Source: a virus
DNA length: 64,000 nucleotides
IMG/VR virus record: IMGVR_UViG_3300027967_000093
Strand: one strand, 5' to 3'
Position numbers and translations under genes: made by a program. Positions 615-62,167 of the stretch are shown here, one piece after another; positions within the stretch are counted from its first letter, which is position 1; every line of letters starts with the position of its first letter. Under the pieces are notes generated by a model. The model ran no database searches and was not told the origin of the DNA. It saw only the letters and a list, made by a program, of their open reading frames with translations.

Positions 615-1145
615 ATGTTGTTTAAGACATATATCCCCGATGTTGTACACCATATGCGGGAACGTGATGAATCTATTGGAGGAGACAATCCTTACAAATG
701 GGTTCGTAAGATGACAAGTGAATTGCTTGGAGGAAAGAGGGTTGTCGTGTTTGGATTGCCTGGCGCATTTACTCCTACTTGCACTAATGAACAACTACCT
801 AACTTCGAACGACTCTATGATGAGTTTGTCGCAGAAGGTATCGAAGAAGTCTGGTGTACTTCTGTGAATGATGCATTCTCGATGAACAAGTGGGCCAAAG
901 ACCTTGGTATTATCAAGGTGAAGATGTTACCTGACGGTAACGGTCAGTTTGCAGATGGTCTGGGTTACTTAGTTGATAAGTCCAATCTAGGGTTCGGCAA
1001 ACGTTCTTGGCGTTACGCACTAGTCATCGATAACATGAGTATTGAACGTTGGTTCGATGAAGACGGTATGTCTGACAATTGTCCGGACGACCCATACGAA
1101 GTATCTAATCCTGAAAACGTACTCGCCAAATTGCGAGAAGGTTAA
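615..1145 (+). CDS. peroxiredoxin, Prx5-type (redoxin)
   Basis: VVFGLPGAFTPTCT active-site motif, SVNDAF, RSWRYA. Confidence 0.92.
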   Translation: MLFKTYIPDVVHHMRERDESIGGDNPYKWVRKMTSELLGGKRVVVFGLPGAFTPTCTNEQLPNFERLYDEFVAEGIEEVWCTSVNDAFSMNKWAKDLGIIKVKMLPDGNGQFADGLGYLVDKSNLGFGKRSWRYALVIDNMSIERWFDEDGMSDNCPDDPYEVSNPENVLAKLREG

Positions 1146-1154
1146 AATGGGATA

Positions 1155-1177
1155 CCCTCCGAAAGGAGGGTTTTTTT
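1155..1177 (+). terminator. rho-independent terminator
   Basis: CCCTCC-GAAA-GGAGGG followed by T7. Confidence 0.85.
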
Positions 1178-1180
1178 ATC

Positions 1181-1411
1181 ATGAAAAAATATTATAACAA
1201 ATATGTAATGAAAGAGACTCTAGTCATTGTGGGGTCTGGAACAGTAATCAATTATCCTATAGGCATCCTCTTTGCTTGGTTGATTATTGACATCTGGGGT
1301 ATCACTGACCCTGTTGCATTTGCGACCATCTCAACTATCGGGTTCTTTATAGTTGCAATGATACGAGTGTACACAGTAAGATATATCTCAGAAACTAAAA
1401 GAAAAGATTGA
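1181..1411 (+). CDS. small membrane protein (2 TM)
   Basis: Two hydrophobic segments. Confidence 0.65.
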   Translation: MKKYYNKYVMKETLVIVGSGTVINYPIGILFAWLIIDIWGITDPVAFATISTIGFFIVAMIRVYTVRYISETKRKD

Positions 1412-1436
1412 CATATCGTTCCACTTGCGATATAAT
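1408..1436 (+). promoter_or_regulatory. sigma70-type promoter for gp44
   Basis: TTGACA-17 bp-TATAAT perfect consensus. Confidence 0.85.
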
Positions 1437-1450
1437 GACTACTTAATTAA

Positions 1451-4594: not shown

Positions 4595-5129
4595 TATGAA
4601 CATGGTAGACATCTTTGAGGATAACGTAGATAATATTGCAGAGAAGACTCCTTATTACGGTAAACTTCCGCAAGAACTGATTGAGAAGTATAACTGGGAT
4701 ATCCACATGGATATGTTAGATACTCATCCCGAGGAACTTCTTGACACCAATACAAGTAAAATGCGTATAGGTCTCAACTCGTTTCACACAAGACCTTCTG
4801 CACCTCAGTTCGCAAAGGATATAGAGAGCGCAATGCAGGAAGTCTTTGCACTTCATGGTAATAAGATCACTAACATTGCGTTCACTGGTTTCGGGCCTAA
4901 CTCTGACAGTTATCCACGACACAAAGATTCTATGGATGTCTTCCTTGTTCAAGTACTGGGTGAAATAAAGATTTGTGTGGATGGGTTGCATGATGAACCT
5001 GTCCCATTCAAGCCGGGGGATTACTATTGGATTCCTCGAGGGAACCACCATCAAGTGTTCCCAACCACAAGCAGAGCAACGTTTTCTTTCGGTGTCGAAG
5101 GAAATCCTGACCCTGCAATATACTTTTAA
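4581..5129 (+). CDS. JmjC/cupin-like oxygenase
   Basis: HKDSMDVFLVQVLG...PGDYYWIPRGNHH, HxD...H metal triad. Confidence 0.7.
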   Translation: MEINDMNMVDIFEDNVDNIAEKTPYYGKLPQELIEKYNWDIHMDMLDTHPEELLDTNTSKMRIGLNSFHTRPSAPQFAKDIESAMQEVFALHGNKITNIAFTGFGPNSDSYPRHKDSMDVFLVQVLGEIKICVDGLHDEPVPFKPGDYYWIPRGNHHQVFPTTSRATFSFGVEGNPDPAIYF

Positions 5130-5773: not shown

Positions 5774-6589
5774 ATGAATTTGATATATCAATATTGGGAT
5801 GGTGAAGTAAGAGAATCATGTCGTGCCGGTGTATATGCAATGCAAGAATACGCAGAACGTATTGGTGCAGAGTACATATTCGAAGAGAACCCTCAGTTTC
5901 TAAAGAATCACTTCGGTTATAACTTTGGTGGTTACACTCCGCACTATGGTGCATTCAAACCTATCTTTGATGAATCATTTGACAAGTATGACAATGTTCT
6001 ATTTGTAGATACAGATGTATTTCCTGTAGAAGGTCTGACGCATAATATCTTTGACGAGTTTACTGGTGAGATTGGTATCTGTACAGAACCAGAACAACCA
6101 CGTATTCGTACAATCACTAAGGGTCGCATTACATCTAAACAAGATGAGAAGTGGGCACAGATGGTACGAGACACTTGGAGTACCGAAGTACCCCGTACCG
6201 ATGATGGACTTGTTGAAGTCTTCAATACTGGTATGGTGTTATATTCAAAACAAGGACGTATCAAAGCACGAAAGGAATGGGTTGACCCTGCACTATATTT
6301 TCAGTTGTGTAAGTCAAAAGGTCTAGACTCATTCTACACCTGTGACCAACCATATCTACACGCCATGATGTTTATATGCGACTTTGATGTACAATATATG
6401 GACAACGGATGGAACTCATACATTCACTTCGCACGTACAGTAGACAAAGAAGAACGTTACTTATGTGATTGGAGAAACAAGGCTACTAAATTTGTACACG
6501 TACAGTTTGCAGGTGCAGATAACTTAGACGCAGAGACTCATCACCGTATTGTGAACCTTCCCCAAGAAAAATGGAATCTCCCTAGTTGA
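5774..6589 (+). CDS. GT-A fold glycosyltransferase (paralog family A)
   Basis: YDNVLFVDTD (DxD), FNTGMVL, DQPYL. Confidence 0.75.
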   Translation: MNLIYQYWDGEVRESCRAGVYAMQEYAERIGAEYIFEENPQFLKNHFGYNFGGYTPHYGAFKPIFDESFDKYDNVLFVDTDVFPVEGLTHNIFDEFTGEIGICTEPEQPRIRTITKGRITSKQDEKWAQMVRDTWSTEVPRTDDGLVEVFNTGMVLYSKQGRIKARKEWVDPALYFQLCKSKGLDSFYTCDQPYLHAMMFICDFDVQYMDNGWNSYIHFARTVDKEERYLCDWRNKATKFVHVQFAGADNLDAETHHRIVNLPQEKWNLPS

Positions 6590-7389
6590 AGGCGTATCAG
6601 ATAGTAATCAAGGGTAATGAAGTATCCGAGGAGTACGCACGTATCTCTCGGAAATCATTTGAACCTTTAATTGTAGCAGGTGTCATCGAAGAGATAATTA
6701 CCTTTGATGCCATCACACCAGATTGTCCCCATTTTGACGAACATGTGTCAAGATATAACTGGGAATCTTCCTTGATGGTAGGAGACCTTCGTGGGTCTAA
6801 TCCTGATGACCATTCACCGACCGAGAAAGCAGGTATGTGTTCTCACTGGGAACTTATGCGAATGCAGTCCGAGTCGGACGAGAGATTCTTGGTTTTAGAA
6901 CATGACACTTTCTTCTTGGCGGAACACTTTGATGTGTTCTGTGACTTGATTAAACGTATCGAGGAAGAGGGTACCTTATATGCAAACCTCGGACTATTCA
7001 TGGGATGTTATTCTTTACATCCCCATACTGCGGGATGGCAGTACGAAGTGTTGACCGAGAAAGACTTCCCAATCAACTGTGGCCCATACTGCACACTACA
7101 ACGATTGTTCTCTACATATACAACTGCATACCTCAAGAAGGTAGACTATCGAGGAGTTGAAGATACTGTTATCCATCCATGGCATGACTGTGACACTCTC
7201 TTCTTTGGTAGAAAGGTGGGTATCGCGTTCAATAAACGAGACCCTTCTCGTGCGGATAATATGTGGAAGACTCCGACTACCCAAGTGGTTTCTAAGTCAC
7301 TCGCAGTGACCCAAGACCATCATGGTTACCAACAAAACTTCATCGACCACCCATGGACACGTCACAAATATTTTCATATAATAGATTGA
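6586..7389 (+). CDS. GT25-like glycosyltransferase
   Basis: AYQI N-terminus, FDAITP, GMCSHWELM, FLVLEHD. Confidence 0.65.
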   Translation: MKAYQIVIKGNEVSEEYARISRKSFEPLIVAGVIEEIITFDAITPDCPHFDEHVSRYNWESSLMVGDLRGSNPDDHSPTEKAGMCSHWELMRMQSESDERFLVLEHDTFFLAEHFDVFCDLIKRIEEEGTLYANLGLFMGCYSLHPHTAGWQYEVLTEKDFPINCGPYCTLQRLFSTYTTAYLKKVDYRGVEDTVIHPWHDCDTLFFGRKVGIAFNKRDPSRADNMWKTPTTQVVSKSLAVTQDHHGYQQNFIDHPWTRHKYFHIID

Positions 7390-7437: not shown

Positions 7438-8574
7438 ATGATACTAACTAAAGAAGATGCGTTCTACGCAGCAAATGTTTTCACGGAGTTCTTTTCGAAC
7501 TTCGACCGTATTGACGACTATATGCGACAAATCAAGATGGAACGTATGAAGACGTTCCCCACGGGTCTACTTGGTATGGGCCCCGAAGATGACCTGTTCG
7601 ATGATTTCGACATGCACCCCAATGATATGGAGTTTGTTATTGGCGAATGTCCACAGAACCAGTTCATGCAGTACATGGAGATTGTTACTTCTGCGCCCGT
7701 AGAATCTAGTATTCCGGGCAAACAGATGTTGAAGATTGTCAAAGAGAAGAACTCAGGTAAGATCTTCGGTATGATTCGATTCGGTTCTCCGACAATCAAC
7801 TCACGTCCTCGAAACGAATGGTTGGGTAATCCTCTGGACTCGTACAATCCCGCAGTGATGAAACGATTCAATAACTCTGTTATAATGGGGTTTAACATAA
7901 TCCCCGTGCAGCCCGCAGCGTTCAATACTTTAGGTGGTAAACTACTCGCAGGTATCTGTTGTTCCCACCAAATGAGAAAAGAAATTAATAAACGATATGG
8001 TTCTAACATTGCGATGTTCGAGACCACATCCCTATATGGGTCGTCTACCGCTGCAAGTATGTATGACGGTATGCGCCCATTCCTACGTTTTAACGGTTTG
8101 ACAGACTCAAACTTCGCCCCACTAATCAACGATGATAACTTCCGTAGATTGAACGACTGGTTCAAAGAACGGAACGGTGGTGATTACTTGGTACCTGCTG
8201 ACGCATCTTCTCGTAAGTTGAAGACGCAGACCAAGATGGTATCCATTATCAAATCCTCTCTCAAACAATATGATGTGGATGCCTATGCGAAGTTCTGTCA
8301 AACCTTTAAAGATGCGAAGGGTTTGACCGAGAAGAAACGATCCTTCTTCTCTACCTATGGTTATGAGGCACAGTCAGTCAAGGACTATCTAAACCTCAAG
8401 ACCGATGAACTCAAACCCGCAGAGAACTTTGACCGATTCGAGATGGAGAACATCGTATCTTGGTGGCGCAAGAAGGCATCCAAGAGATTCGAACAGGTCA
8501 AGGCAGATGGTCGTCTACGTACCAAACTAGAAACGTGGAATACAAATGCGGATGAAATTGATATCATTCGTTAA
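7438..8574 (+). CDS. DUF4338/DruA-like protein
   Basis: SIPGK...GMIRFGSP, PVQP..FNTLGGKLLA, FETTSLYG...SMYDG; resemblance recognised from memory. Confidence 0.55.
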   Translation: MILTKEDAFYAANVFTEFFSNFDRIDDYMRQIKMERMKTFPTGLLGMGPEDDLFDDFDMHPNDMEFVIGECPQNQFMQYMEIVTSAPVESSIPGKQMLKIVKEKNSGKIFGMIRFGSPTINSRPRNEWLGNPLDSYNPAVMKRFNNSVIMGFNIIPVQPAAFNTLGGKLLAGICCSHQMRKEINKRYGSNIAMFETTSLYGSSTAASMYDGMRPFLRFNGLTDSNFAPLINDDNFRRLNDWFKERNGGDYLVPADASSRKLKTQTKMVSIIKSSLKQYDVDAYAKFCQTFKDAKGLTEKKRSFFSTYGYEAQSVKDYLNLKTDELKPAENFDRFEMENIVSWWRKKASKRFEQVKADGRLRTKLETWNTNADEIDIIR

Positions 8575-8665: not shown

Positions 8666-9661
8666 ATGAAATTAAGTAAGAGTACTAAACACAGCGAAGT
8701 CACAGGACAACTTGCTAACTTAACGGGTACAATCCGTATCCAAGAAATAATCGATGCAATTCTTCGTATCGAAAACTTCAAGTCTAAAACCCTAGATGGT
8801 ATGACCACAATTGCAAAATACAATCCTAATGAAGAAGGAGTTGTTGCAATAGATGAAATTTGGGTTGATATGACGTATCAACGTATTGTGCGTCTGAAGA
8901 AACTCATCAACAAACTTCAAAAAATGAATGGTTTTGATCCATACTCCGCTGGAGTGGTGGACATCGCAATCCGTCCGTCTCAGAAGAAGTTTTGTTGGGA
9001 TGGTCTCCGCCGTATCATCATGGCTGGACTTTGTGGATTGACGCACATCAAGACTTCACAGTTGGTGCATAAACAGTTTATGACTGATCTGGAATGTCAG
9101 AAAGAGGAAGCTCGTTACTTCAAGTCACGTAATGCTGATAACGAGTCCATGAAACAGGAAGAGATTTTCAAGTCCGAAGTTGTCTACGGAGACAAGGACG
9201 CTCTTGAACTACTGGATCTTTTCAAGAACTGTGAACTTGACGTAGAAGGACTAAATCCATCCGGCAAGTCTTTGGGTGGGTTTGTCGAGGTGAAGACCAA
9301 CTACTTCCGAAAGGATGGTATTGCAGAGGAATACTTTATAGAGTCTTCTAATATCATTCGAGAAGTGTATGATAAGGAACCTACGGTGTCTGGTTATCTG
9401 CTCACAGGACTCGCATACTTATTGATGAAAAACGAAGATGTCGATCATTCATATGACAGAGAAGAGATTCTGGAATATTTGAAAAAATATAAGAGTGTCA
9501 ATCCCAAACAGACTAATCTAATTAAAGGGCGTTTAGCTGGAAATGCCCGTGCAAGTATCGCTTACTTGATTACAAGACGTGCTTTAAATGACAACAATGG
9601 TTTATTGTCTTCCTTTGGTTTGGACAATGAAACTATGGAAGTCATAGATCAGGCGGCATAA
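8666..9661 (+). CDS. hypothetical protein with ParB/Srx-like N-terminal domain
   Basis: VDMTYQR and WDGLRR resemble ParB-like YQR...DGxHR motifs. Confidence 0.5.
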   Translation: MKLSKSTKHSEVTGQLANLTGTIRIQEIIDAILRIENFKSKTLDGMTTIAKYNPNEEGVVAIDEIWVDMTYQRIVRLKKLINKLQKMNGFDPYSAGVVDIAIRPSQKKFCWDGLRRIIMAGLCGLTHIKTSQLVHKQFMTDLECQKEEARYFKSRNADNESMKQEEIFKSEVVYGDKDALELLDLFKNCELDVEGLNPSGKSLGGFVEVKTNYFRKDGIAEEYFIESSNIIREVYDKEPTVSGYLLTGLAYLLMKNEDVDHSYDREEILEYLKKYKSVNPKQTNLIKGRLAGNARASIAYLITRRALNDNNGLLSSFGLDNETMEVIDQAA

Positions 9662-9664
9662 ATT

Positions 9665-10213
9665 ATGAACCATGTGAATCAACAACTCAAAACACAGTGG
9701 GGTTCATACTCGGATCGTCAAGATAGTTTTGACGATTCCGAGGACATCTCTCGATTCATTACAATGGTCGGTGAGAGTCATCCCCTCAAAAAATATATTA
9801 AAAACTTCATAGGGTCGGGGGACTATGAATGGGTTCCTCATCCTGATGGTATTTATGGAGTTGACCTTGCACTTGTAGAGAAGGTTACTGATAGACGCAT
9901 AGTGAACTTCGACCTAGAACGGTGGAGTGCGTGGAAGTCTGATTGGCCTCATTTCTATAAGGCGATTCACTTCCTTGGACGAAAGGAGAAGTTCCTTAAT
10001 AAAGGTGTTCCTTTCCTCATGTGTTATCTGAACTATAACCGTGACCGAGTTCTGATTGTAGACGAAGACATTATTAAGAAATATCCTACAGTCGATACTC
10101 ATTTCAAAAAGAAGAACGTCACTGATACACTCAAAAAGATTCCCCTAACTCTAGGGAATATCTTTGGTAAATACTCAGAGACCGAAAGCATATTATTTCA
10201 AACGGGGGATTGA
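9665..10213 (+). CDS. hypothetical protein, possibly PD-(D/E)xK-like
   Basis: YGVDL...FDLER...W pattern; weak. Confidence 0.4.
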   Translation: MNHVNQQLKTQWGSYSDRQDSFDDSEDISRFITMVGESHPLKKYIKNFIGSGDYEWVPHPDGIYGVDLALVEKVTDRRIVNFDLERWSAWKSDWPHFYKAIHFLGRKEKFLNKGVPFLMCYLNYNRDRVLIVDEDIIKKYPTVDTHFKKKNVTDTLKKIPLTLGNIFGKYSETESILFQTGD

Positions 10214-10266: not shown

Positions 10267-12756
10267 ATGTCTAATTTTTATACATCCGTTGTCCGTTTTG
10301 GCAACAAACTTCTGTACCGTGGTTTCGAGAACGGTAAAGAAGTAAAACGCAGAATTCCTTTTAAACCCACTCTGTTTATGTCCGGTACCGCAGAACAATC
10401 TGATGGTTGGACTACACTTGATGGACTACCCGTACAACCAATAACGTTTGACTCTATGACAGAGGCGAAGGACTTCGAGAAACGTTACGAACATGTCTCT
10501 AACTTTACTATTGCAGGTAACACTAACTATGTTGCCCAATTGATTGGTGAAGTCTTTCCCGATAAGATTGACTATGACCGCAGTCTCATCAAGACTGCGA
10601 ACATCGATATCGAGGTTTTCTCTCAGGACGGATTCCCCGAACCTGGCGCGGCCGCATATCCTATTACCGCAATCACTATGCGTCAAGACTGTGGTACGTA
10701 CTGGGTCTGGGGTTGTCAAGACTATACGGTATCTCGTGATGATGTACTCTATATCAAGTGTGACAACGAACTAGACCTACTTCAAAAGTTTGTACGTCAG
10801 TTCGAACAATACGCCCCCAATATTATTACTGGTTGGAACACACGGTTCTTCGATATTCCGTATCTGGTTAACCGTATGACTAAAATTCTCGGTGATGATA
10901 CCATGGCGAAACGTATGTCTCCGTGGGGTCTTATCCGTGAACGTAATACTACCATCAACGGTAAACCCAACCAAGAGTTTGTCCTTGAGGGTATCGAACA
11001 ACTTGACTACCTCGAAGTCTTCAAGAAGTTCACCTACAATACTCTGGGTCAACAAGAATCCTATCGACTAGACCATATCGCCCACGTAGTACTGGGTGAA
11101 CGCAAACTATCCTATGAGGAACATGGTTCTCTGTTTGCCCTGTATGAGAATGACTTCCAGAAGTTCATTGACTATAACATCAAAGACGTTGAGTTGGTAC
11201 ATCTCCTCGATGTTAAACTTGATTTGATTTCATTAATCCTGACCATGGCCTACAAGGCGGGTGTGAACTATAACGATACTCTGGGTACGACTGCTATCTG
11301 GGACACCATCATCTACCGACTTCTGAATAAGAACAAGGTTGCGGTTCCTAAGAAGATTGAGAAACCCAAGACCTCATATCCTGGCGGTTACGTGAAAGAC
11401 CCACAGGTTGGTTCGCACGACTGGGTAACCTCATTCGATTTGGCATCTCTGTATCCTAACATCATTGTACAATACAATATGTCACCCGAGACGGTAATGG
11501 ACGGATTCGTTAACAATGTCTCGGTCGATAAGTTTCTGGACGGTTCGGTTGACCTGACTGACCAGAATCTAGATTATGCTCTTGCACCCACTGGTGTTAG
11601 ATTCGCCCAAGATAAAGAAGGTGTGGTTCCCAAAATCATTAAAATGTATTACTCGGAACGTAGAGTAATCAAGAAGAAGATGTTGGAATGTCAACAGGAG
11701 ATGCAGACTAACCCATCTAAAACTCTAGAGTATACCATAACTTCTCTGAATAATCAACAGATGGCAATTAAAATTCTTATGAATTCACTTTATGGTGCCC
11801 TCGGGAATCGTTGGTTCAGATATTTCGACCAAAGAGTTGCAGAGTCCATTACTCTTGCTGGTCAACTTGCAATCAAATGGGCGGAGAGAGCAGTAAACAA
11901 TGAAATGCAAAAACTTCTTAAAACGGATGAAGACTACGTTGTGGCAATTGACACCGATTCTGTTTATCTTCGTATGGGGGATCTCGTTGATAAGTTTTCT
12001 CCTAGTAATCCGGTAAAGTTTCTCGACAAGATCTGTTCGGAACACTTCGAGAAAATCCTTGTAAAGTCTTATGCGGATATGGCACTAGCGACCAATGCCT
12101 ATGAGAATCGCATGGAGATGGAACGGGAGGTAATCGCAGACCGTGGCATCTGGATGGCCAAGAAACGTTACATCCTGAACGTGCACAATAACGAGGGTGT
12201 CCAGTACGCAGAACCCAAACTCAAGATGATGGGTATCGAGGCAATCAAGTCCAGTACTCCGCAGGTTGTCCGTGACAAGTTCAAAGAGATATTTCGGGTC
12301 ATCGTAGAAGGTACCGAAGTAGACACACAACGATACATTTCGGACTTTAAGTCCCATTTTAAGACCTTACCGCCCGAAGCGGTTTCGTTTCCTCGGGGTG
12401 TATCGGATGTGACCAAATGGTCTGACCGTAAGAGTGTGTACAAGAAAGGTACTCCTATCCACGTGCGTGGTGCGTTGATGTTCAACAAAGCACTCAAGGA
12501 AAGTTCTCTGACCAAACGGTACGAGACTATCAAGAATGGTGAGAAGATTAAGTTTTGTTACCTGAAGATGCCTAATCCAATCGGTGAGAATGTAATCTCT
12601 TATCCACTAAACCTTCCCCGTGAATTGGGACTAGATAAATATATCAATTATGATATGATGTTCAACAAAACATTCCTTGACCCACTCACTCCCATTCTGG
12701 ATGCGGTCGGTTGGGATTCTGAACCTCAGTCATCACTGGAGGACTTCTTTGGTTAA
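10267..12756 (+). CDS. gp43: family B DNA polymerase gp43
   Basis: Exo [34 protein letters not shown]; intact, no intein. Confidence 0.98.
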
Positions 12757-13288
12757 TTATAAAAAGGTAGAGGGTATTATAAGTAAAGACCTTTGTGAAG
12801 TACTTGCAGGGTCTATTCTTATACTGGAAAATAATACACCCGAAGAACATATGGGAGACAACATAACTCCGGGCGCATTCCAACGTCACGGATACTCCGG
12901 AACAGACTCTCTGTTATTTTATGTGAGACATAAACTAGAAAAGATTGTGGGTAAGAAATTACTACCCACATTTAGTTACTGTAGGGTGTATAGGAATGGT
13001 CACAGACTACCCCAACACCTAGACAGACCTTCATGTGAGTTGGTGATATCTATTAACCTGAAGAACGATGGTGTCCCATGGCCTATAATATTGGGTGCTA
13101 CTTCTCCGGTCGATGTTCATCTAGACCAAGGTGACGGTGTTATATACGAGGGCACTAAAGTTCTTCATACCAGAAAACCATTTGATGGTAATGAACATGT
13201 ACAAGTGTTCTTGTGTTATGTCTATGCAGATGGTGAACATACTCATTTAAAATATGATAAAAGGGTTGACACCTTTGACCCATTTTGA
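12749..13288 (+). CDS. 2OG-Fe(II) oxygenase
   Basis: YCRVY...HLDRPSCE...GDGVIY...HTR; overlaps gp43 stop. Confidence 0.8.
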
Positions 13289-43891: not shown

Positions 43892-44154
43892 TTAATTTCA
43901 AAAAATACCTTGCCGAAGCACGTTATTCAATGTATGATGTAATAGATGAAGAGGGTGAAGGACTTGCTGGTAAAGCGAAGAAGTCTGGTATCTCGGTAGA
44001 TACATTGAGAAAAGTTTATAACCGTGGTGTTGCGGCATGGAAGACGGGACACCGTCCAGGCACTACTCCACAGCAATGGGGATATGCGAGAGTAAACGCA
44101 TTCATCGTTAAAAAGAAAAAAGGCAATTTAAACCACGATAAGGATCTTGCATAA
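43888..44154 (+). CDS. small internal-protein-like hypothetical protein
   Basis: MINFKKYLAEA; LRKVYNRGVAAWKTGHRPG..PQQWGYARVN. Confidence 0.7.
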   Translation: MINFKKYLAEARYSMYDVIDEEGEGLAGKAKKSGISVDTLRKVYNRGVAAWKTGHRPGTTPQQWGYARVNAFIVKKKKGNLNHDKDLA

Positions 44155-45298: not shown

Positions 45299-45649
45299 AT
45301 GAAAACTTTTAATCACTACAATGAGATAGACGAACATTGCGAATGTAATGATTTGTACGAAGACTTAGAATTAACAGAGTCCGAGTATCAAGGAAAGAAA
45401 GTCACGTTGAACAATCCCATTCGTACATCCGAGAACCCCAACAAGAAGTTCAAGGTGTACGTTAAGAATGAATCTGGTAAGGTTGTTGTGGTTAGGTTTG
45501 GTGACCCTAATATGGATATTAAGAGAGACGACCCCAATAGACGTAAGTCATTCCGAGCAAGGCACAACTGTGCGAATCCCGGCCCCAAATGGAAAGCAAG
45601 ATACTGGTCTTGTTACCAATGGCGCGCAGGTTCTAAAGTCGATAACTAA
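45299..45649 (+). CDS. basic hypothetical protein
   Basis: KKFKVYVK...VRFGDPNM...RRKSFRARHNC...ARYWSC. Confidence 0.7.
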   Translation: MKTFNHYNEIDEHCECNDLYEDLELTESEYQGKKVTLNNPIRTSENPNKKFKVYVKNESGKVVVVRFGDPNMDIKRDDPNRRKSFRARHNCANPGPKWKARYWSCYQWRAGSKVDN

Positions 45650-48371: not shown

Positions 48372-48970
48372 TGGGTATTTTAAAATCAGCAGCAGACCTC
48401 GTATATACGATACGATTTCTGAAACTACTCGTAACACCTTTTGATAAGACAGAGGCGTTCAAGGCGGGTATCATCGATGAAGATGGACAAAGGAATAAAG
48501 AGTTCGACCGTAATAGTGCGGACGACCGTGAAGCATATCGTTCACACTACACACCATTCCACCGTCTTGTTTTCAATATAAAACGTCTTATGGCGAAAGT
48601 TCCTGGCGGTCAATCTGTGGTTGCAAGATATGGTGCGGCTCTTGCACTAATCAAAGAACACGGTGAACTGTCAGATAAGAACCTAATGAAGATTCACGCC
48701 GAGACTGGTATCGATATCCTAGACTGTCTTGCAGAACAATCTCAGTGGTTCATGTTAGAAGGTAATCAATTGTCGCCAGGCGTGTACCGTATGCGCAATG
48801 AATCCATCACTACAGAGTGTGACGAGGTTATCTTTAAAGGTGACCAGATACGTATCACCGAAGAAAATTCTCTTCCCCGTGATGAAGTTTTAGGTCTAAG
48901 TGTGTACGAAGCAGTACATATTAAGACTCAAAAAAGACTATATATTACTACAGCTGAAATAACTAAATGA
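48371..48970 (+). CDS. conserved T4-like phage hypothetical protein
   Basis: DLVYTIRFLKLLVTPF...GIIDEDG...YTPFHRLVFNIKR. Confidence 0.75.
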   Translation: MGILKSAADLVYTIRFLKLLVTPFDKTEAFKAGIIDEDGQRNKEFDRNSADDREAYRSHYTPFHRLVFNIKRLMAKVPGGQSVVARYGAALALIKEHGELSDKNLMKIHAETGIDILDCLAEQSQWFMLEGNQLSPGVYRMRNESITTECDEVIFKGDQIRITEENSLPRDEVLGLSVYEAVHIKTQKRLYITTAEITK

Positions 48971-50134: not shown

Positions 50135-52101
50135 TGAAGATTGATAAAAAACTAGATAAATTATTAGAAGATTATGCGGTAGGAATGTTGAAAGACTTCT
50201 ACCTCACCAAAGAAGAAAAGTCACCCCAAGAAGGTTATGCACGTGCCGCAAAGGCATGGTCTGGCGGTGATGAAGAGTTAGCACAAAGACTGTATGATTA
50301 TGTCTCGAAGAAGTGGTTTATGTTTGCATCTCCGGTTCTGTCAAACGCACCAGATGATAATGGAAAAGGAAAGGGGATGCCTATCTCTTGTTTCCTTACC
50401 TATGTACCTGATACCCTAGAAGGACTAATAGAACACTCGTCAGAGTTACGTTGGTTGTCTGTAATGGGTGGTGGTGTAGGTGGTCACTGGTCAGACGTTC
50501 GTACAGTATCGGACATTGCTCCTGGCCCGATGCCTTTCATCCATACTGTGGATGCGGATATGATTGCATACCGTCAGGGTAAGACTCGCAAGGGTTCTTA
50601 TGCTGCATACCTCGATGTGTCTCATCCAGACATTATTGAGTTCTTGAATATGCGTATCCCTACAGGTGATGTACAACGCAAGGCATTGAACTTACACAAT
50701 GCAATTAATATCAGTGATGAGTTTATGTTGGCAGTGACCAACAACACTGACTTTGACCTACGTGACCCCAAGGATAACGCAGTCAAGGAAACTATCAATG
50801 CACGTAAACTATGGGAACGTATCATCGAGACTCGTTTCCGTACAGGTGAACCATACCTGAACTTCATTGATACTGCGAACCGTGACCTACCAGAACCACT
50901 GAAGAACTTGGGTCTGAAGATTCACGGATCAAACCTTTGTAATGAAATACACTTACCTACTAGTGCAGACCGTACTGCGGTATGTTGTTTGTCTTCTTTG
51001 AACTTGGAGTATTATGATGAATGGAAAGAAACTAATATCGTGCGTGACATTGTTCGGATGCTTGACAATGTGTTGGATTATTTTATCGAACATGCCCCCG
51101 ACTCTATCTCCCGTGCACGATATAGTGCTGAGCGAGAACGTTCGATTGGTCTAGGTGCGATGGGTTTCCACTCACTCCTACAGAAACATGGAGTCGCATG
51201 GGAATCGGATAAAGCACGTGAAATTAATGATGTTGTATTCAAACATATCAATGCAGAGGCAGTCGCAGAGACACAGTTCCTCGCACGGGTGCGCGGGTGT
51301 TACCCTGATGGTGAAGGGTATGGACGCAGGAATGCCCACCTGATTGCGATTGCACCTAATGCATCGTCTGGTGTTATTTTGAGTACAAGTCCTTCTATCG
51401 AACCATTGAAGGCAAATGCATATACACACCGTACACGTGCTGGTTCTTTCTTAGTGAAGAACAAATACCTCAACCAACTCCTTACCGAGAAGGGAGAGAA
51501 CAACGAGTCCAACTGGACTTCTATTATCACCAACAAAGGTTCGGTTCAACATCTACCGTTCCTTAGTGAAGGTGAGAAGTCTGTATTTAAGACTGCACAA
51601 GAGTTAGACCAAACTTGGGTAGTCCAACACGCGGCCGACCGTCAGAAGTATATCTGTCAAGGTCAGTCGGTGAACGTATTCTTCCCTGCTGGTGCACCTA
51701 AATCCTACGTGAACAAGGTTCATGTTAAGGCATGGAAGGAAGGTTTGAAAGGTCTGTACTATCTACGTACAGAAGCAAAACAACGTGCAGAGAATGTCTC
51801 TGAGAAAGTGGAACGTGTTGCACTTCAAGAAGATAATCGCACGATTGTATATGGTATACCAAACTGTCCGTTCTGTCAGTTAGCAAAAGACGAATTGACA
51901 CTACGTGGTGTACCGTTTGATTATATTGATTTGAAAGAGATTGGTAAGACTGCTGCAGAAGTGACTGGACGTAAGGTCAAGACTGTACCGCAGATTTATA
52001 TGCAAGGAAATTATGTAGGTGGTTATGAGGAACTTATGGCGTTCCTAGATAAGACCATTATAGAAACCGAAGATAACGAATGTCGAGCTTGTGAGGGATA
52101 A
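50134..52101 (+). CDS. nrdA: class I ribonucleotide reductase alpha subunit with fused glutaredoxin
   Basis: ISCF, SNLCNEI, AIAPNASS, LYYLR; CPFC...TVPQI...VGGY glutaredoxin; terminal CRACEG; no ATP cone. Confidence 0.95.
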   Translation: MKIDKKLDKLLEDYAVGMLKDFYLTKEEKSPQEGYARAAKAWSGGDEELAQRLYDYVSKKWFMFASPVLSNAPDDNGKGKGMPISCFLTYVPDTLEGLIEHSSELRWLSVMGGGVGGHWSDVRTVSDIAPGPMPFIHTVDADMIAYRQGKTRKGSYAAYLDVSHPDIIEFLNMRIPTGDVQRKALNLHNAINISDEFMLAVTNNTDFDLRDPKDNAVKETINARKLWERIIETRFRTGEPYLNFIDTANRDLPEPLKNLGLKIHGSNLCNEIHLPTSADRTAVCCLSSLNLEYYDEWKETNIVRDIVRMLDNVLDYFIEHAPDSISRARYSAERERSIGLGAMGFHSLLQKHGVAWESDKAREINDVVFKHINAEAVAETQFLARVRGCYPDGEGYGRRNAHLIAIAPNASSGVILSTSPSIEPLKANAYTHRTRAGSFLVKNKYLNQLLTEKGENNESNWTSIITNKGSVQHLPFLSEGEKSVFKTAQELDQTWVVQHAADRQKYICQGQSVNVFFPAGAPKSYVNKVHVKAWKEGLKGLYYLRTEAKQRAENVSEKVERVALQEDNRTIVYGIPNCPFCQLAKDELTLRGVPFDYIDLKEIGKTAAEVTGRKVKTVPQIYMQGNYVGGYEELMAFLDKTIIETEDNECRACEG

Positions 52102-53303: not shown

Positions 53304-53759
53304 ATGTGGCATTATCAAAACGAAGAATACAATCCTCCCGAAGACGAACTCAGCGAATATGTTGGGTTCGTCTATCTTATTACAGAACGTGATACCGGAA
53401 AGAAATATGTCGGTAAGAAGTTCTTCTGGTCTGTACGCAGACTACCCCCACTGAAAGGTCAGAAACGGAAACGCAAGGTTACCAAACAATCTGACTGGAT
53501 GGACTACTATGGGTCATCCGAAGAACTCAAACTACTGGTAGAGAAGAAAGGTGGTGAAGCATACTACCGAGAGATACTACACCTCTGCAAAACCAAAGGT
53601 GAGTGTTCCTACCTTGAAGCCAAAGAACAATTCAACCGTGACGTTCTGTTACGGGACGACTACTACAATGCATTCATTGGATGTAAGATTCACGCAAAAC
53701 ACCTCCCCGAGACATTGAAACCAATCCGTGGGCCTGAACCATGGTACAATAGACCATAG
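53304..53759 (+). CDS. denA: GIY-YIG endonuclease, T4 endonuclease II-like
   Basis: GFVYLIT...KYVGKK, SDWMDYYGSS, REIL, YLE. Confidence 0.75.
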   Translation: MWHYQNEEYNPPEDELSEYVGFVYLITERDTGKKYVGKKFFWSVRRLPPLKGQKRKRKVTKQSDWMDYYGSSEELKLLVEKKGGEAYYREILHLCKTKGECSYLEAKEQFNRDVLLRDDYYNAFIGCKIHAKHLPETLKPIRGPEPWYNRP

Positions 53760-55528: not shown

Positions 55529-55969
55529 ATGAATATGGCATACACTATTACTAAACAAATTCACGAAATTCTCAAAGAGTTTGAGAGTCAGACGACTAGG
55601 TCAACTAGAAAGGAAGTACTTCTGAAGTACAAAGACGTTCCTGCCCTTCTCGATGTACTACGTGGTACATTCGATGAATCTCTACGATTCACCCTCCCAG
55701 AGGGTACACCCCCTTATACTCCAAATAAAGAAGAATCCGTTCCGAGTTCTCTGTTGAAGAAGAACCGTGATTTTGGGTACTTTGTAAAAGGTGGGCCAGG
55801 CGATAGACTCCCTAATTATAAGGTCGAGTCGATGTTCATCAAACTTCTGGAATCTATTCATGCCGAAGATGCAAAAATAGTTTTATCCATGGTGGCTAAA
55901 AAGTCACCCGTCAAAAACCTAACCAAAAAACTAGTACAGGAGGCCTTCCCCAATCTAATTAAAACCTAA
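55529..55969 (+). CDS. conserved T4-like phage hypothetical protein
   Basis: LPEGTPPY...FVKGG...ESMFIKLLESIH. Confidence 0.75.
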   Translation: MNMAYTITKQIHEILKEFESQTTRSTRKEVLLKYKDVPALLDVLRGTFDESLRFTLPEGTPPYTPNKEESVPSSLLKKNRDFGYFVKGGPGDRLPNYKVESMFIKLLESIHAEDAKIVLSMVAKKSPVKNLTKKLVQEAFPNLIKT

Positions 55970-56227: not shown

Positions 56228-56464
56228 ATGCCAATATATGAATTTAAAAATAATGAAACCGATGAAGTAGTAGATATCAAATTAAGCATATCCGAGTATG
56301 ACCAATTCTTGGTCGACAATCCTCATCTCACACGGTACTATTCCTCTAGTCCTGGCCTTGTTTCCGGAACAAAATCTGCACTTACGACCGCAGGTTCTGG
56401 ATGGCAAGAATTAATTGGTCGGGTTAAGAAAAGTTCCGGTAAGGACAACACGATAAAAACATGA
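56228..56464 (+). CDS. FmdB-like small protein (cysteines absent)
   Basis: MPIYEF...NPHL; precedes phoH. Confidence 0.65.
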   Translation: MPIYEFKNNETDEVVDIKLSISEYDQFLVDNPHLTRYYSSSPGLVSGTKSALTTAGSGWQELIGRVKKSSGKDNTIKT

Positions 56465-57165
56465 AAAAACAAACTCCTACAAAACCATCTGTGTTAAAGA
56501 TTGACCATCTCTGCACAATAGATCCTATGACTACAAGTCAGGAAACCGTCTTTCGTGCGTGGAAAGAAGGTAACCATATTGTAATGTCGGGTTCAGCAGG
56601 TTCAGGTAAGACCTTTGTCGGTATGTATCTTGCGTTACAAGATGTACTCGACAAGGGGAGTGAATACGAGAAACTGGTTGTCTGTAGGTCTATCGTACCC
56701 ACAAGGGAAATTGGTTTCCTGCCGGGAACACTAGAAGAAAAGATGGATGCGTATACTGGCCCCTATCGTCAGATATGTACCGAACTATTCGAGGATAGAG
56801 AATCCTATGATAAACTGGTTAAGGCAGGTTCGTTGGAGTTTGTGTCTACCTCACATATACGAGGTACCACATACAACGATGCAATCATCGTAGTTGATGA
56901 AATGCAGAACTTGACATTCCACGAGTTAGATAGTATAATTACTCGAGTGGGTAAAAATTGTAAGGTAATCTTCTGTGGAGATTATTACCAGTCCGACTTT
57001 ACTCGGGCAGGTGATAAGAAAGGAATCATCGATTTCTTGCATATTCTAGAACAGATGAATAGATTCACAATAACAGAATTTACATGGGCAGATATAGTAC
57101 GTTCGGACTTCGTGCGTGACTATATAATGACTAAAGAACTTATTTTAAAGGAGAACCCCCAGTGA
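56461..57165 (+). CDS. phoH: PhoH-family ATPase
   Basis: GSAGSGKT, REIGFLPG, RGTT, VDEMQN, TRVG, GDYYQSD, DIVRS. Confidence 0.95.
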   Translation: MKKQTPTKPSVLKIDHLCTIDPMTTSQETVFRAWKEGNHIVMSGSAGSGKTFVGMYLALQDVLDKGSEYEKLVVCRSIVPTREIGFLPGTLEEKMDAYTGPYRQICTELFEDRESYDKLVKAGSLEFVSTSHIRGTTYNDAIIVVDEMQNLTFHELDSIITRVGKNCKVIFCGDYYQSDFTRAGDKKGIIDFLHILEQMNRFTITEFTWADIVRSDFVRDYIMTKELILKENPQ

Positions 57166-58794: not shown

Positions 58795-59372
58795 ATAAAG
58801 AAAATGTAATATTGACAGACATCGATGGTGTAGTTCTTAACTGGTTCTACGCATTCGATATCTGGATGAACGAACACGGTCACAAGTTAGCTGACCCAAC
58901 AAACCTAGTCTATGATGTCAGTGAAGCCTATGGTATTGACAAGGCGACAGGTAAGATGTTAGTCCGTATGTTTAACGAGAGTGCCCATGTCGGGTTCCTT
59001 CCCCCACTACGTGATGCAATGCATTACATGAAGAAGTTGCACGAAGAACATGGTTATGTGTTCCATGCGATTACTAGTCTGAGTGATAACCCCAACGCAC
59101 AGAAGTTGCGTATCCTAAACCTTCAGAAGTTGTTCGGTGAGACTTTGTTTGAGAAGTTCATTATCCTTGGTTGTGGTGATGACAAAGACGAAGCGTTAGA
59201 ACCTTACCGTGACACCGAATGTCTATGGGTAGAAGATAAACCTGAGAATGCCGAACTAGGTGTTGAACTTGGTCTGGAGAGTGTGTTGATGGAACATGGT
59301 TTCAACATGAACCACCCAACTATCCCTTGCATGAAAAACTGGAAAGAGATCTACGAAAAACTGGTTGGTTAA
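58791..59372 (+). CDS. HAD-superfamily 5'(3')-deoxyribonucleotidase-like protein
   Basis: LTDIDGVV (DxDG), AITS, WVEDK..N. Confidence 0.8.
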   Translation: MNKENVILTDIDGVVLNWFYAFDIWMNEHGHKLADPTNLVYDVSEAYGIDKATGKMLVRMFNESAHVGFLPPLRDAMHYMKKLHEEHGYVFHAITSLSDNPNAQKLRILNLQKLFGETLFEKFIILGCGDDKDEALEPYRDTECLWVEDKPENAELGVELGLESVLMEHGFNMNHPTIPCMKNWKEIYEKLVG

Positions 59373-59418
59373 TCATATGATATATAACCTCGAGATTAAA
59401 TTTAATTGAGAGGTTATA

Positions 59419-60918
59419 ATGCGCTTTACTGGATTCAGTGAGTATTATCATGATGCAGCACTGACTGTAATTAACGAAGATGGTGTGGTGGAGTTTGCTT
59501 CCCATGCCGAACGTTATTCTAAAAAGAAAAACGACCCCATTATACCAGATTCTCTCTGGGAAGAAAATGTTCTTGATGACGACCACCTGTCATTCTACGA
59601 GAACATCGACAGTAAAAAAACCTACCGAAAAAACATGGCCGGAAAAGATGGTAAACATTTTCAAGGACGGTCGGTCACTACACAATCCGAAATACCTGTA
59701 TATGAGTCCCTTGCATATGATGTTTGTTATGACCACCATGTATCACATTGTGCGACAGCATTCTACACTAGACCATGGGAGTCTACCGAAGATACCGTAA
59801 TGGTCTCTATCGATGGTGTGGGTGAGTATCAGACCGCAGTCATCCTAGATAGTCAATTCAACTTAATCGAAGAGTGGCACTATCCCAAGTCTATTGGACT
59901 AGTCTACACAACTGCCACTAAAGTGTTGGGCTTGCGTCCACTTGAGGATGAGTATGTCGTTATGGGATTATCCTCATACGGTACCGCACCTAAAGAGATG
60001 GTTGACTGGTTGATTGACTGGTGGGAGAACACCCCTAATATCGCACCAGAAATCGCTCTAAAACAAGTCATTGATATAAAGGGTAGTGAGAGTTGGGGTC
60101 GTGGTGCAGACATGCGCAGTAAACTCAAAGATTGGGGTAACAAGTACGAAGACAAAGACTTTGCGGCTGGTATCCAGAAATTTGCAGAGTATGGAATTAT
60201 GCAAATAATGCATATTGCACGACAACACGGTTCTAAGTTGGTCTATGGTGGAGGATGTGCACAGAATGTTGTTATCAATTCAATGATACATGAACTGTTT
60301 GATGACATGCATATATCGGTATCACCTACTGATGCAGGTTCTTCTCTGGGTGCAGCTGCACTGTCATGGTCAAAGGAAACGGGTAAGGATAGACTTGAGT
60401 GGACACCTTATCTTGGTTACAACATTGACAGAGAGATAGACCCCAAGGAAGTAGTCGATCACCTCTTAGAACACGGTGTGTGTGGTCTGGCGAACGGTAG
60501 GGCGGAGTTTGGCCCCCGTGCACTGGGTAACAGGTCTCTTATTGCAGACGTTAGATATGACGTTAAGGATACGGTCAACACAATCAAACGTAGACAGAAG
60601 TATCGTCCGTTCGCACCTGCAATCCTTGCTGAACATGCACATGACTATTTCGAAGGGCCTATGAACGAGTACATGCAGTACACGTCTATAGCAAAACATC
60701 CATACGAGTCAGTGACTCACGTTGATGGGACTGCACGAGTGCAATTAGTACAACCTGACTGTCCAAGTATCTTCCGTAAGATAATTGAAGAGTACTATGC
60801 GCGTACAGGTATCCCTATGTTACTCAACACTTCATTGAATATCAGGGGAAGACCTATGGTGAACGATGAACATGATGCTGAATTGTGGGAACAAAAGTAC
60901 GGGGTAAAAGTGTTTTAA
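59419..60918 (+). CDS. carbamoyltransferase (NodU/CmcH family)
   Basis: HDAA, HHVSH..AFY, IDGVGE, GGCAQN, EFGPRALGNRS, RPFAP, HVDGTARVQ, LLNTSLN. Confidence 0.93.
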   Translation: MRFTGFSEYYHDAALTVINEDGVVEFASHAERYSKKKNDPIIPDSLWEENVLDDDHLSFYENIDSKKTYRKNMAGKDGKHFQGRSVTTQSEIPVYESLAYDVCYDHHVSHCATAFYTRPWESTEDTVMVSIDGVGEYQTAVILDSQFNLIEEWHYPKSIGLVYTTATKVLGLRPLEDEYVVMGLSSYGTAPKEMVDWLIDWWENTPNIAPEIALKQVIDIKGSESWGRGADMRSKLKDWGNKYEDKDFAAGIQKFAEYGIMQIMHIARQHGSKLVYGGGCAQNVVINSMIHELFDDMHISVSPTDAGSSLGAAALSWSKETGKDRLEWTPYLGYNIDREIDPKEVVDHLLEHGVCGLANGRAEFGPRALGNRSLIADVRYDVKDTVNTIKRRQKYRPFAPAILAEHAHDYFEGPMNEYMQYTSIAKHPYESVTHVDGTARVQLVQPDCPSIFRKIIEEYYARTGIPMLLNTSLNIRGRPMVNDEHDAELWEQKYGVKVF

Positions 60919-60926
60919 TATAAATA
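60919..60926 (+). promoter_or_regulatory. T4-type late promoter
   Basis: TATAAATA, intergenic. Confidence 0.7.
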
Positions 60927-60962
60927 CCATTACTAATAACTACAATAATAAGGGTATAAGTA

Positions 60963-61307
60963 ATGGTAGATAAAACGCAGATTACAGTAGACAGCGATGG
61001 TTCACTGGCTGGTGCAGATCTAGATGGAGATGGACACATCACCGAACAGGAACTCAAGATGCACCTTGAGTTTAAACGTAAAGAGTTAGAGGATGCGGAC
61101 GCAATGCGTGATGCACAAAGGAACATGGCTTGGTTCGCATTGACTGGTATGTTACTATACCCGTTTGCAGTAGTCCTTGCATCCGTGATTGGATTGGACA
61201 GTGCAGCGAAAATCCTTGGTGATATGGCCGCGACCTACTTTGTTTCTGTTGCCGCAATCGTAATGGGGTTCTATGGTAAAGAGGCTCTCGCAAATAAAGG
61301 TAAATGA
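60963..61307 (+). CDS. EF-hand-containing 2-TM membrane protein (holin-like)
   Basis: DLDGDGHITEQE loop, then two TM helices and a basic tail. Confidence 0.6.
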   Translation: MVDKTQITVDSDGSLAGADLDGDGHITEQELKMHLEFKRKELEDADAMRDAQRNMAWFALTGMLLYPFAVVLASVIGLDSAAKILGDMAATYFVSVAAIVMGFYGKEALANKGK

Positions 61308-62167
61308 TGGAATTAATAACTTGGCGTGGTACGCCAGGAGTAGGTGACTTTATGTGGGCGCTTAATTGCGCCCACAATTATTGTTATCATAATAACATAA
61401 AGGTCAACCTAGAATTTCATTGGGAACATGATGAGAAACACTTACATCATTTCGAAGACCCCGAGACAATAATCGAACGTCTCGAATATCTACACAACTT
61501 CTATCATCGCAAAGATGATGTCACAGTAACACACGTATTCAATTCTGACGGACGATACACGGACTGGAGTTACAACGATGACTTGGTTCCGGAAGATGAT
61601 GGTAGTATCCGTATCGCAGCCATACGTAGACCTAATAAGTCACGGTTCTGGTTTCAGAGTGGCGCATACTCGGACAAAGAAGGTTCGGGTGCACCTGACC
61701 CCAACTGGATATTCCGAGAAGACGCATTCCGAGAGATAGACAAAAATAAGATTGTTATATGGAGACCTACGTTTAATGCAGAGGTTCCTAGGACTTGGAA
61801 AAGACAGTTGACAAATGATGATTGGGATGATATAATAAGCTTACTGCGTCAGGGAGGATTATATGTAGTAGAATTGACTTACAGAACACCAGTAAGTGAA
61901 GCATTACATCACATCTCTACGTGCAGAATGATACTGTCTTATGATGGTATGTGGCATTACATAGCACGTAATCTATGTAGACCTATGGTAGTGGTCAGTA
62001 CTGAAGGAATCACTAAATACCATACTCCGAACTGTGTACGTGCGAGTCCGGATAAGAATCAAGACACCAATATATTCTGGTGGATGAATAATATTCGAGA
62101 CATGTTAGGCCACAGTAAGAAGAAAGCAATAGAATTTGAACAAATAATGAGAGAATATCATGGGTGA
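61304..62167 (+). CDS. GT-B/GT9-like glycosyltransferase
   Basis: GVGDF near N-terminus, WKR, SYDGMWHYIA...RPMVV. Confidence 0.55.
   Translation: MMELITWRGTPGVGDFMWALNCAHNYCYHNNIKVNLEFHWEHDEKHLHHFEDPETIIERLEYLHNFYHRKDDVTVTHVFNSDGRYTDWSYNDDLVPEDDGSIRIAAIRRPNKSRFWFQSGAYSDKEGSGAPDPNWIFREDAFREIDKNKIVIWRPTFNAEVPRTWKRQLTNDDWDDIISLLRQGGLYVVELTYRTPVSEALHHISTCRMILSYDGMWHYIARNLCRPMVVVSTEGITKYHTPNCVRASPDKNQDTNIFWWMNNIRDMLGHSKKKAIEFEQIMREYHG

Follow-up and report, generated by a model that had tools for sequence, protein, structure and literature searches.

Why does a phage in which GGT is the usual glycine codon write glycine as GGC after proline, and why is every CCNGG pentamer in its DNA placed next to a GC dinucleotide? 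These questions are raised by a stretch of 64,000 nucleotides from a marine T4-like phage (IMG/VR record IMGVR_UViG_3300027967_000093); this whole stretch is called the window in the following. A preliminary description of the window had proposed that CCNGG and GGNCC are avoided and that sites forced by the protein sequence are rescued by DNA modification at GpC. The part concerning CCNGG gained support, both from relatives encoding the cytosine-modifying pair CmoX/CmoA and from a subclade in which candidate modification genes are missing and the flank rule is lost; the part concerning GGWCC was not supported. A DruA-like protein with a predicted GNAT fold, encoded at positions 7438-8574, emerged as the most likely modifying enzyme of the window lineage.

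An exhaustive count returned exactly the 27 CCNGG sites listed before, comprising 21 CCWGG and six CCSGG sites, and gene calls placed 27 of 27 in frame at Pro-Gly codon pairs. Sites were termed flanked when they read GCCNGG or CCNGGC and unflanked when they read HCCNGGD. As had been described, all sites in the window are flanked: GCCNGG was found nine times, CCNGGC 22 times and both together four times; HCCNGGD does not occur. The null expectation was obtained from 300 synonymous-codon shuffles in which proteins and codon usage were kept, and it amounted to 62 ± 6.5 HCCNGGD sites. Since 77% of the CCNGG sites in this null are unflanked, the finding of 27 flanked sites among 27 has a P-value of ~1e-17. 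The flank pattern in the window is real and far beyond chance. GGT accounts for 66% and GGC for 7% of all Gly codons in the window, in agreement with the earlier statement on Gly codon usage. After Pro, GGC was found at 22 of 27 sites as compared to 68 of 1243 (5%) at other Gly positions (Fisher P = 2e-22), and in all five CCNGG sites without GGC the preceding codon ends in G. GpC itself is depleted in the window (rho 0.61, graded RGCY < RGCR/YGCY < YGCR), which makes the choice of GGC at Pro-Gly even more striking.

The individual sites, as obtained from the count and the gene calls, are all located on the plus strand and are given here with codon triplets in frame. A 3' C flank is found at 7714-7718 (ATT CCG GGC AAA), 10642-10646 (GAA CCT GGC GCG) and 11380-11384 (TAT CCT GGC GGT), the latter two in the DNA polymerase gene, 12869-12873 (ACT CCG GGC GCA), 15917-15921 (GTT CCT GGC CCA, V-P-G-P, overlapping GGCCC), 24825-24829 (AAA CCA GGC AGG), 25556-25560 (ACT CCT GGC GTC), 25889-25893 (TTT CCT GGC GGT), 35766-35770 (ATC CCT GGC GAC), 35958-35962 (CAT CCT GGC GTA), 39482-39486 (TTA CCA GGC CGT), 43043-43047 (GCT CCT GGC GAT), 44056-44060 (CGT CCA GGC ACT), 45160-45164 (AAA CCA GGC CGT), 45578-45582 (AAT CCC GGC CCC), 48602-48606 (GTT CCT GGC GGT), 50521-50525 (GCT CCT GGC CCG) and 56351-56355 (AGT CCT GGC CTT). 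Both flanks are present at 759-763 (TTG CCT GGC GCA, L-P-G-A), 20680-20684 (CCG CCA GGC GGA), 48776-48780 (TCG CCA GGC GTG) and 55796-55800 (GGG CCA GGC GAT, G-P-G-D). Only a 5' G flank is present at 5013-5017 (AAG CCG GGG GAT), 16279-16283 (ACG CCT GGA CTG), 32765-32769 (CAG CCG GGT GCA), 56722-56726 (CTG CCG GGA ACA) and 61334-61338 (ACG CCA GGA GTA).

The window was then compared with its relatives. The closest complete genome is that of C48C1 (Kyanoviridae, 156 kb; OQ984149.1). The IMG/VR contig G1 (92 kb) shows synteny to the window, with nucleotide identities of 66-97%, and G5 (105 kb) extends from window position 53.9 kb via the structural genes round to the polymerase; G1 and G5 jointly close a circular genome of ~146 kb for the window lineage and were used as a proxy for its full genome. 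The clade was sampled by 114 polymerase-anchored loci and eight long contigs. Unflanked sites made up 0 of 40 CCNGG sites in G1, 0 of 50 in G5, 0 of 23 in G9, 0 of 51 in G8, 0 of 77 in G16, 1 of 60 in G7, 1 of 81 in G15 and 2 of 76 in G6. The flank rule is nearly universal in a large clade of marine T4-like phages.

Where Pro-Gly sites can be matched between genomes, the central N changes without constraint and the GC flank is kept. Furthermore, the flank can change sides: the window site at 5013, AAG-CCG-GGG with a 5' G, corresponds to AAT-CCA-GGC with a 3' C in G1 and G2, and ACT-CCT-GGC at 25556 corresponds to ACG-CCC-GGA in the same contigs, a fully synonymous compensatory move to a 5' G flank. 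The homologue of site 11380 reads CCTGGT in loci L117 and L138, which lack a candidate modification gene, and also in L145, an apparently mosaic carrier of CmoX. G6 and G8 contain CCNGG in avoidable reading frames too, and these sites are flanked every time; flanked CCNGG thus behaves as a neutral non-target. The idea that all restriction sites survive only beside GCC was rejected for the lineage, as CCGG, CCNNGG, CGCG and CTAG showed no flank effect; only 23% of the 64 CCGG sites are flanked, and 12 TCCGGA are among them.

Side observations on dipeptides were also made. Pro-Gly, Gly-Pro and Trp-Pro occur in the window at 0.60, 0.44 and 0.45 of the expected frequency. In relatives, Pro-Gly is likewise low (0.50-0.72) and Gly-Pro ranges from 0.38 to 1.12, no unrelated proteome serving as baseline for these values. 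The low frequencies may reflect selection against forced sites at the amino-acid level.

A gene whose product could modify the GC step was sought in the window lineage and in its sister lineages (such candidates, CmoX or DruA-like, are termed writers here). G6 and G7 encode a protein of the C5-methyltransferase family PF00145 which matches PDB 8YF3 (SpCmoX) with E = 1e-154 and is 65% identical to CmoX of phage S-B43 (tblastn). All 17 full-length CmoX homologues of the clade retain the SPPC motif and the Arg350 signature (GRMVPP), and directly downstream of each lies a gene for a CmoA with 52-55% identity to the S-B43 protein. SpCmoX of the Synechococcus phage S-B43 is a DNA cytosine C5-carboxymethyltransferase acting at the GC motif with carboxy-S-adenosylmethionine (Cx-SAM) provided by the phage CmoA (PMC12783734). 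About 75% (~75%) of the GC sequences in S-B43 virion DNA carry a glycine amide derivative, and HhaI is blocked (PMC12783734). In G7-type genomes CmoX and CmoA are located between the polymerase gene and a conserved open reading frame (ORF) that directly precedes CmoX; in the window, the homologue of this ORF (6586-7389, plus strand) and the T4-type DNA polymerase gp43 (10267-12756, plus strand), which also served as anchor for the 114 related loci, form the upstream and downstream edges of the same slot. A side observation concerns the OM43 phage Melnitz (MZ577097.1): its C5-transferase homologue has Leu (GLMVAP) at the position of Arg350 in CmoX and of Asn in methyltransferases, and its cofactor may be neither S-adenosylmethionine (SAM) nor Cx-SAM.

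CmoX is absent from the window, G1 and G5 as judged by tblastn, hmmsearch and PF00145, and tblastn with the CmoA of G7, which shares 52% identity with the S-B43 protein, found no homologue in the window, G1 or G2. PF00145 remained without a match in G1-G5, the N6/N4 and D12 methyltransferase families PF01555 and PF02086 in G1 and G5, and DpdA (PF01702) in G1, G5, G6, G7 and G9, the latter being matched in all 14 control genomes. The TET/JBP family PF12851 gave no match in G1-G4, with G5 outside the search, and this negative is weak as the control genomes were unmatched too. A Pfam scan of the window ORFs one by one, which covered ~55 of 97 and left out small ORFs, revealed no C5-methyltransferase or TET among the ~55 ORFs scanned. 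A Dam-like methyltransferase as found in C48C1 was rejected as well, since it is absent from the window, G1 and G2. The previously suggested C5-methyltransferase/TET pathway was accordingly not found as a writer in G1 and G5, the TET part of this search being confined to the half shared with the window. The earlier remark that no methyltransferase gene is recognisable in the window holds for C5, N6/N4 and D12 enzymes, but it had overlooked a candidate writer, ORF 7438-8574.

This ORF (plus strand, 378 aa) occupies the slot of CmoX and CmoA. Its match to PF14236 (DUF4338, the DruA family) scores 36.1 bits (E = 5e-9; cut-off 27). The copies in G1 and G5 are 97-98% identical to it, and there are >6000 metagenomic homologues; PF14236 is among the precomputed matches listed for all 120 homologues. 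A structure model was built from 27 homologues (predicted local distance difference test, pLDDT, 74) and compared with 48,000 PDB representatives. The closest structure was Mom of phage Mu (8bv8; Z 9.1, 164 residues aligned, 8% identity; VIA-align). Model residues 60-340 reach Z 8-9 with many GNATs, more than ten (>10) unrelated GNATs lying within 1 Z unit of Mom, and Foldseek gave GNAT matches at a probability of 0.9-0.98 with E-values >1e-3. According to the model, the protein has a GNAT fold. DUF4338 has been termed a GNAT domain (PMC10853773), and Synechococcus phages are already known to encode DruA-like proteins, no function being assigned to them (Phold preprint, 10.1101/2025.08.05.668817). 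One GenBank record labels a homologue 'methylcarbamoylase mom'; a literature search yielded no report of a function for the DruA-like family.

Additionally, writer distribution was analyzed. On the polymerase tree of the 114 loci, clades with the DruA-like gene alternate with clades carrying CmoX+CmoA, and no locus has both. A writer was detected at 45 loci; these contain 341 CCNGG sites, of which five are unflanked, all five in the left half of L145. CmoX or the DruA-like gene is present in every rule-obeying genome that is complete or nearly so; the absence of a writer from contigs G010-G014, which are only 8-28% complete, carries no information. The rule is obeyed with the DruA-like gene alone in the window lineage, in G16 and in phage S-SSM7 (10 of 206 sites unflanked; PF00145 and PF01555 unmatched). 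S-SSM7 and Melnitz are the two isolates from outside the clade in which the rule was seen, and each has a writer: Melnitz has 0 of 72 sites unflanked and carries its C5-transferase homologue beside the polymerase. The DruA-like protein is favoured as writer because it shares the slot of CmoX, because the two are mutually exclusive and because genomes with the DruA-like gene alone follow the rule.

The subclade that includes C48C1 encodes neither writer (hmmsearch of the complete C48C1 genome) and may be regarded as a natural knockout control. CCNGG occurs there almost only at forced Pro-Gly, and 47 of 87 sites are unflanked, mostly as CCN-GGT; CCT-GGC sites of the window are CCT-GGT at homologous positions. 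In 31-kb samples of seven isolates from outside the clade, neither CCNGG depletion nor a flank rule was observed; these isolates carry CmoX (S-B43, S-CRM01), the DruA-like gene (HTVC008M, S-CAM9, S-SM2) or neither (Syn9, S-PM2).

From the codon pattern, its conservation, the compensatory changes and the gene distribution, all directly observed, we infer for the window lineage a modification, its chemistry, its writer and a nuclease as follows. The phage lineage would be under strong selection against cleavable CCNGG, presumably exerted by a CCNGG-cutting nuclease of the host. CCNGG would be purged wherever a synonymous codon permits; Pro-Gly (CCN-GGN) cannot be recoded in this way. At Pro-Gly, the shunned Gly codon GGC, or a preceding codon ending in G, would create 5'-GCC-3' on one strand, and the outer C of CCNGG, or its partner G, would thereby come to lie in a GpC step. 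A DNA modification specific to the GpC context, applied after replication, would act on this step, with one modified strand at one end of the site sufficing to block cleavage. The writer would be CmoX together with CmoA in the sister lineages (5-carboxymethylcytosine at GC) and most likely the DruA/Mom-like GNAT-fold protein encoded at 7438-8574 in the window lineage. We hold this reading, protection of forced CCNGG sites by a GpC-context modification with a GNAT protein as the probable writer in the window lineage, to be rather probable.

Several observations weigh against this reading. No canonical DNA-modification gene was found in contigs G1 and G5, which span the genome of the window lineage. 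The scarcity of GpC, above all of RGCY, in the window is not what one would expect of a protective target. In the structure comparison, many ordinary GNATs (Z 8-9) score on a par with Mom. Furthermore, Mom acts on adenine, and as the rule-obeying CCSGG sites contain no A, the DruA-like protein cannot use the adenine chemistry of Mom; the sequence context of Mom, S-A-S-N-Y, does not describe the sites either, GCCAGGA-type sites failing this motif yet following the rule. Many rule-obeying loci show no writer within ±10 kb; G6 and G9 have theirs at a greater distance. Locus L145 (IMGVR_UViG_3300017913_000244) has intact CmoX and CmoA, and five of its 10 CCNGG sites are unflanked. The unflanked five lie left of 13 kb and the flanked five right of 15 kb, so that L145 gives the impression of a mosaic or recombinant, or of a phage that acquired its writer very recently. 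Five writer carriers outside the clade show no rule; a writer alone is therefore insufficient and a second factor, the nuclease, is needed. Finally, 78% of the sites are flanked in C48C1 although it lacks a writer; a recent loss is possible, and a nuclease that dislikes GC flanks fits too.

Such a nuclease is the alternative that survives best, although we consider it unlikely. A flank-selective homodimeric enzyme would itself read HCCNGGD, effectively a 7-bp palindrome, and spare GC-flanked sites in the absence of any modification. This would account for either flank being sufficient and for a rule confined to CCNGG with no need of an unseen modification, and it would agree with the lack of a canonical modification gene in the window lineage and with the predominance of flanked sites in C48C1. 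Enzymes for CCGG or CCNGG which read the outer base pair exist, namely PfoI (TCCNGGA), SexAI (ACCWGGT) and Cfr10I (RCCGGY); to our knowledge, no characterised type II enzyme has a 'not-G' specificity. However, loci L117, L132, L133 and L136, which have no writer, avoid CCNGG equally, disregard the flank and use GGT, and the presence of CmoX or the DruA-like gene in every (near-)complete rule-obeying genome is not expected from flank reading. The exceptions to the rule are also non-random. In the four exceptions from G6, G7 and G15 a GC step lies 1-2 nt from the site, as compared to a background of 16% (P ~0.004 for the first three). In S-SSM7 (NC_015287.1), 10 of 10 unflanked CCNGG sites overlap GGWCC as GGWCCWGG or CCWGGWCC, as compared to 7% in controls (P = 3e-12). 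These exceptions fit a modified cytosine at or beside the outer C, not a plain rule of reading no G at position -1. Those of S-SSM7 would be explained either by activity of the DruA-like enzyme at GWCC as well or by a host methyltransferase that the phage exploits.

The latter idea can be extended to the entire rule: a host methyltransferase would mark GCC/GGC on phage DNA, the phage would exploit these marks, and the CmoX and DruA-like genes would be irrelevant. The S-SSM7 sites speak for it, as all of them overlap GGWCC and no phage methyltransferase was found for GGWCC. However, the same unusual 3-bp specificity would be required in OM43 (Melnitz) and in Synechococcus (S-SSM7). Loss of the rule coinciding with absence of the phage genes would be left unexplained, as would the proven GC-motif transferase in relatives. 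We regard this explanation as quite improbable.

Even less probable is self-avoidance of a phage nuclease that degrades host DNA at HCCNGGD. A candidate is the DenA-like GIY-YIG nuclease encoded at 53304-53759 (plus strand; Pfam SegE_GIY-YIG), or another enzyme. The gene is located right after nrdA/nrdB, which is the position of denA (endonuclease II) in T4, GIY-YIG restriction enzymes with N-centred 5-bp sites exist (Hpy188I, TCNGA), and the CCNGG rule is clade-wide while other avoided motifs vary by lineage. However, 737 phage records contain homologues, S-CAM9 and Syn19 among them, and S-CAM9 shows no CCNGG depletion; the copy of C48C1 is 64% identical, yet the rule is only partial there; and the link with the writer genes would be left unexplained. 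The GIY-YIG nuclease was rejected as the cause because its phyletic spread does not track the rule. Many GenBank records call the homologues 'NAD synthetase', which looks wrong.

A codon-pair preference in translation or a mutational bias for CCN-GGC, unrelated to DNA cleavage, is hardly credible: codon-pair biases occur in many genomes, but at the five non-GGC sites the preceding codon ends in G whatever its amino acid, flanks switch in a compensatory manner, out-of-frame sites in G6 and G8 are flanked, and relatives without a writer encode the same proteins with GGT.

The preliminary description had treated GGNCC together with CCNGG. GGTCC and GGACC are indeed missing from the window (GGWCC 0 vs. 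53 ± 6 in the codon-shuffled null), and Gly-Pro is written GGC-CC or GGG-CC: 20 of 26 GGSCC sites (14.8 ± 3.9 expected) are in-frame Gly-Pro, 13 with GGC and seven with GGG. These 26 sites span 892-63987 and start at 892, 4893, 7081, 7578, 7579, 14776, 15920, 16300, 18822, 23899, 36189, 39698, 42063, 42064, 43511, 44451, 44452, 45581, 50524, 53730, 54176, 55793, 56758, 60511, 60655 and 63983. However, a common mechanism for GGWCC and CCNGG was rejected as unnecessary: relatives with 87-166 GGWCC sites still follow the CCNGG rule perfectly, and plain avoidance of AvaII-type sites (GGWCC) accounts for GGS-CC at Gly-Pro, so no modification is needed. CGWCG (Hpy99I-type), a pentamer outside the preliminary description, is wholly absent from the window (0 vs. 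80 expected); it occurs 0-4 times per contig in G1, G2, G5, G9 and Melnitz and at normal frequency in G6, G7, G8 and C48C1. A GC-flank rule for the residual CGWCG sites of G1 was rejected, as three of four are unflanked. Also far below expectation in the window are GATC (52 observed vs. 235 expected), AGCT (23 vs. 124) and RGCY (143 vs. 321); TGATCA, CGATCG and GGATCC occur 0 times each. GATC depletion is absent from G1, G2 and G5, in spite of 66-97% identity, and present in Melnitz (23 vs. 476); in the window it points to a recent, window-specific pressure. Avoidance of GGWCC, CGWCG and GATC is switched on and off between lineages, and G6 contains 166 GGWCC and 172 CGWCG sites while obeying the CCNGG rule. 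It is separate, ordinary, lineage-specific restriction avoidance, read as conventional because the three motifs are synonymously removable and none is able to overlap a GCY step.

RGCY, a degenerate palindrome of CviJI type, has a rho of 0.2-0.4 in nearly all sampled Kyanoviridae, S-B43 and HTVC008M among them, whether a writer is present or not; L165 and L167 are loci with almost none (rho 0.01). Depletion of RGCY or GpC as a footprint of the writer was rejected, since RGCY is depleted (rho 0.2-0.35) in Syn9, S-PM2 and C48C1 too, which have no writer. C48C1 shows two peculiarities of its own: it contains no CCSGG (about 147 expected) as compared to 88 CCWGG, which suggests a separate avoidance of NciI/BcnI type, and it encodes a Dam-like methyltransferase after the polymerase, with GATC being enriched (814 vs. 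584).

Apart from these motifs, the window contains a T4-type replication module (gp43 polymerase, clamp loader, UvsX, gp41 helicase, NrdA/B and ThyX), PhoH, a carbamoyltransferase and numerous sugar-modifying enzymes. An ordinary cyanophage identity was rejected, as psbA was not found. The OM43 phage Melnitz has the whole avoidance profile of the window, which is merely a hint on the host. An island at 33342-37000 is missing from G1 and G5; it encodes a 565-aa ATP-grasp protein (33939-35636), a 201-aa ORF and a sulfotransferase-like ORF (36278-6970). Two ORFs adjoining the DruA-like gene, 8666-9661 and 9665-10213, are found in the window only as compared to G1 and G5, and have no Pfam match.

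We tentatively suggest, aware that this may well prove wrong, that DruA/DUF4338 GNATs, which are abundant in marine T4-like phages and whose DruA member is encoded by the first gene of Druantia type I, could be a new class of sequence-context-specific DNA base-modifying enzymes acting on the G:C pair of GpC (GCC), interchangeable with CmoX/CmoA, and that Pro-Gly codon choice could have co-evolved to exploit them. If true, a modification, its sequence context and its required position in a restriction site would be readable from the codons at one dipeptide, with no chemistry involved, and metagenomes could be screened cheaply for modified phage genomes. The abundant DruA/DUF4338 family would obtain a testable function, with a bearing on the distinction of self and non-self by Druantia type I, and unrelated writers, a C5-carboxymethyltransferase and a GNAT, would have been swapped at one slot in abundant marine phages.

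GpC-directed hypermodification of phage DNA is already known (PMC8256090, PMC12783734) and site avoidance is classical (PMC6286503); a literature search yielded no report of the rescue of forced sites through codon choice. The closest known system is CmoA/CmoX/CmoY of S-B43 (5-carboxymethyl- and 5-glycylcarboxymethyl-cytosine at GC; PMC12783734, PDB 8YF3), likewise from a marine T4-like member of the Kyanoviridae. Its modification is post-replicative, GpC-directed and blocks a restriction enzyme, and orthologues occupy the same slot in sister lineages of the window. In contrast, CmoX and CmoA are absent from the window and from the lineage-spanning contigs, S-B43 neither avoids CCNGG nor follows the rule (39 of 45 sites unflanked in 31 kb), and the report on the Cmo system mentions no codon-level footprint (PMC12783734). 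Hypermodification by C5-methyltransferase, TET and glycosyltransferase at GpC[C/T] (Burke et al. 2021, PMC8256090) has a similarly short GpC-centred specificity that includes GCC, as does M.CviPI (GpC). Unlike this pathway, the window lineage has no PF00145 in G1 and G5 and no Tet_JBP in G1, G5 being outside the latter search; the window encodes ThyX, and nothing suggests wholesale base replacement.

Mom of phage Mu (8bv8), an adenine N6-carbamoylmethyl transferase, demonstrates that a single GNAT-fold phage gene can modify DNA bases in a short context against restriction. Unlike Mom, which modifies adenine in S-A-S-N-Y, the footprint in the window needs a change on the G:C pair of the GCC step, and the ORF 7438-8574 protein, of ~380 aa, has extra helical parts. 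The protein resembles DruA of Druantia type I in that its PF14236 match exceeds the curated cut-off; its neighbours in the window are phage replication genes. PF14236 membership alone explains nothing, as the function of DruA is not known. As in classical palindrome avoidance (PMC6286503), GGWCC, CGWCG, GATC and many 6-mers are missing or depleted and CCNGG is removed wherever synonymously possible; classical avoidance, however, provides no rule for sites forced by proteins, and here every forced CCNGG site lies within a second motif.

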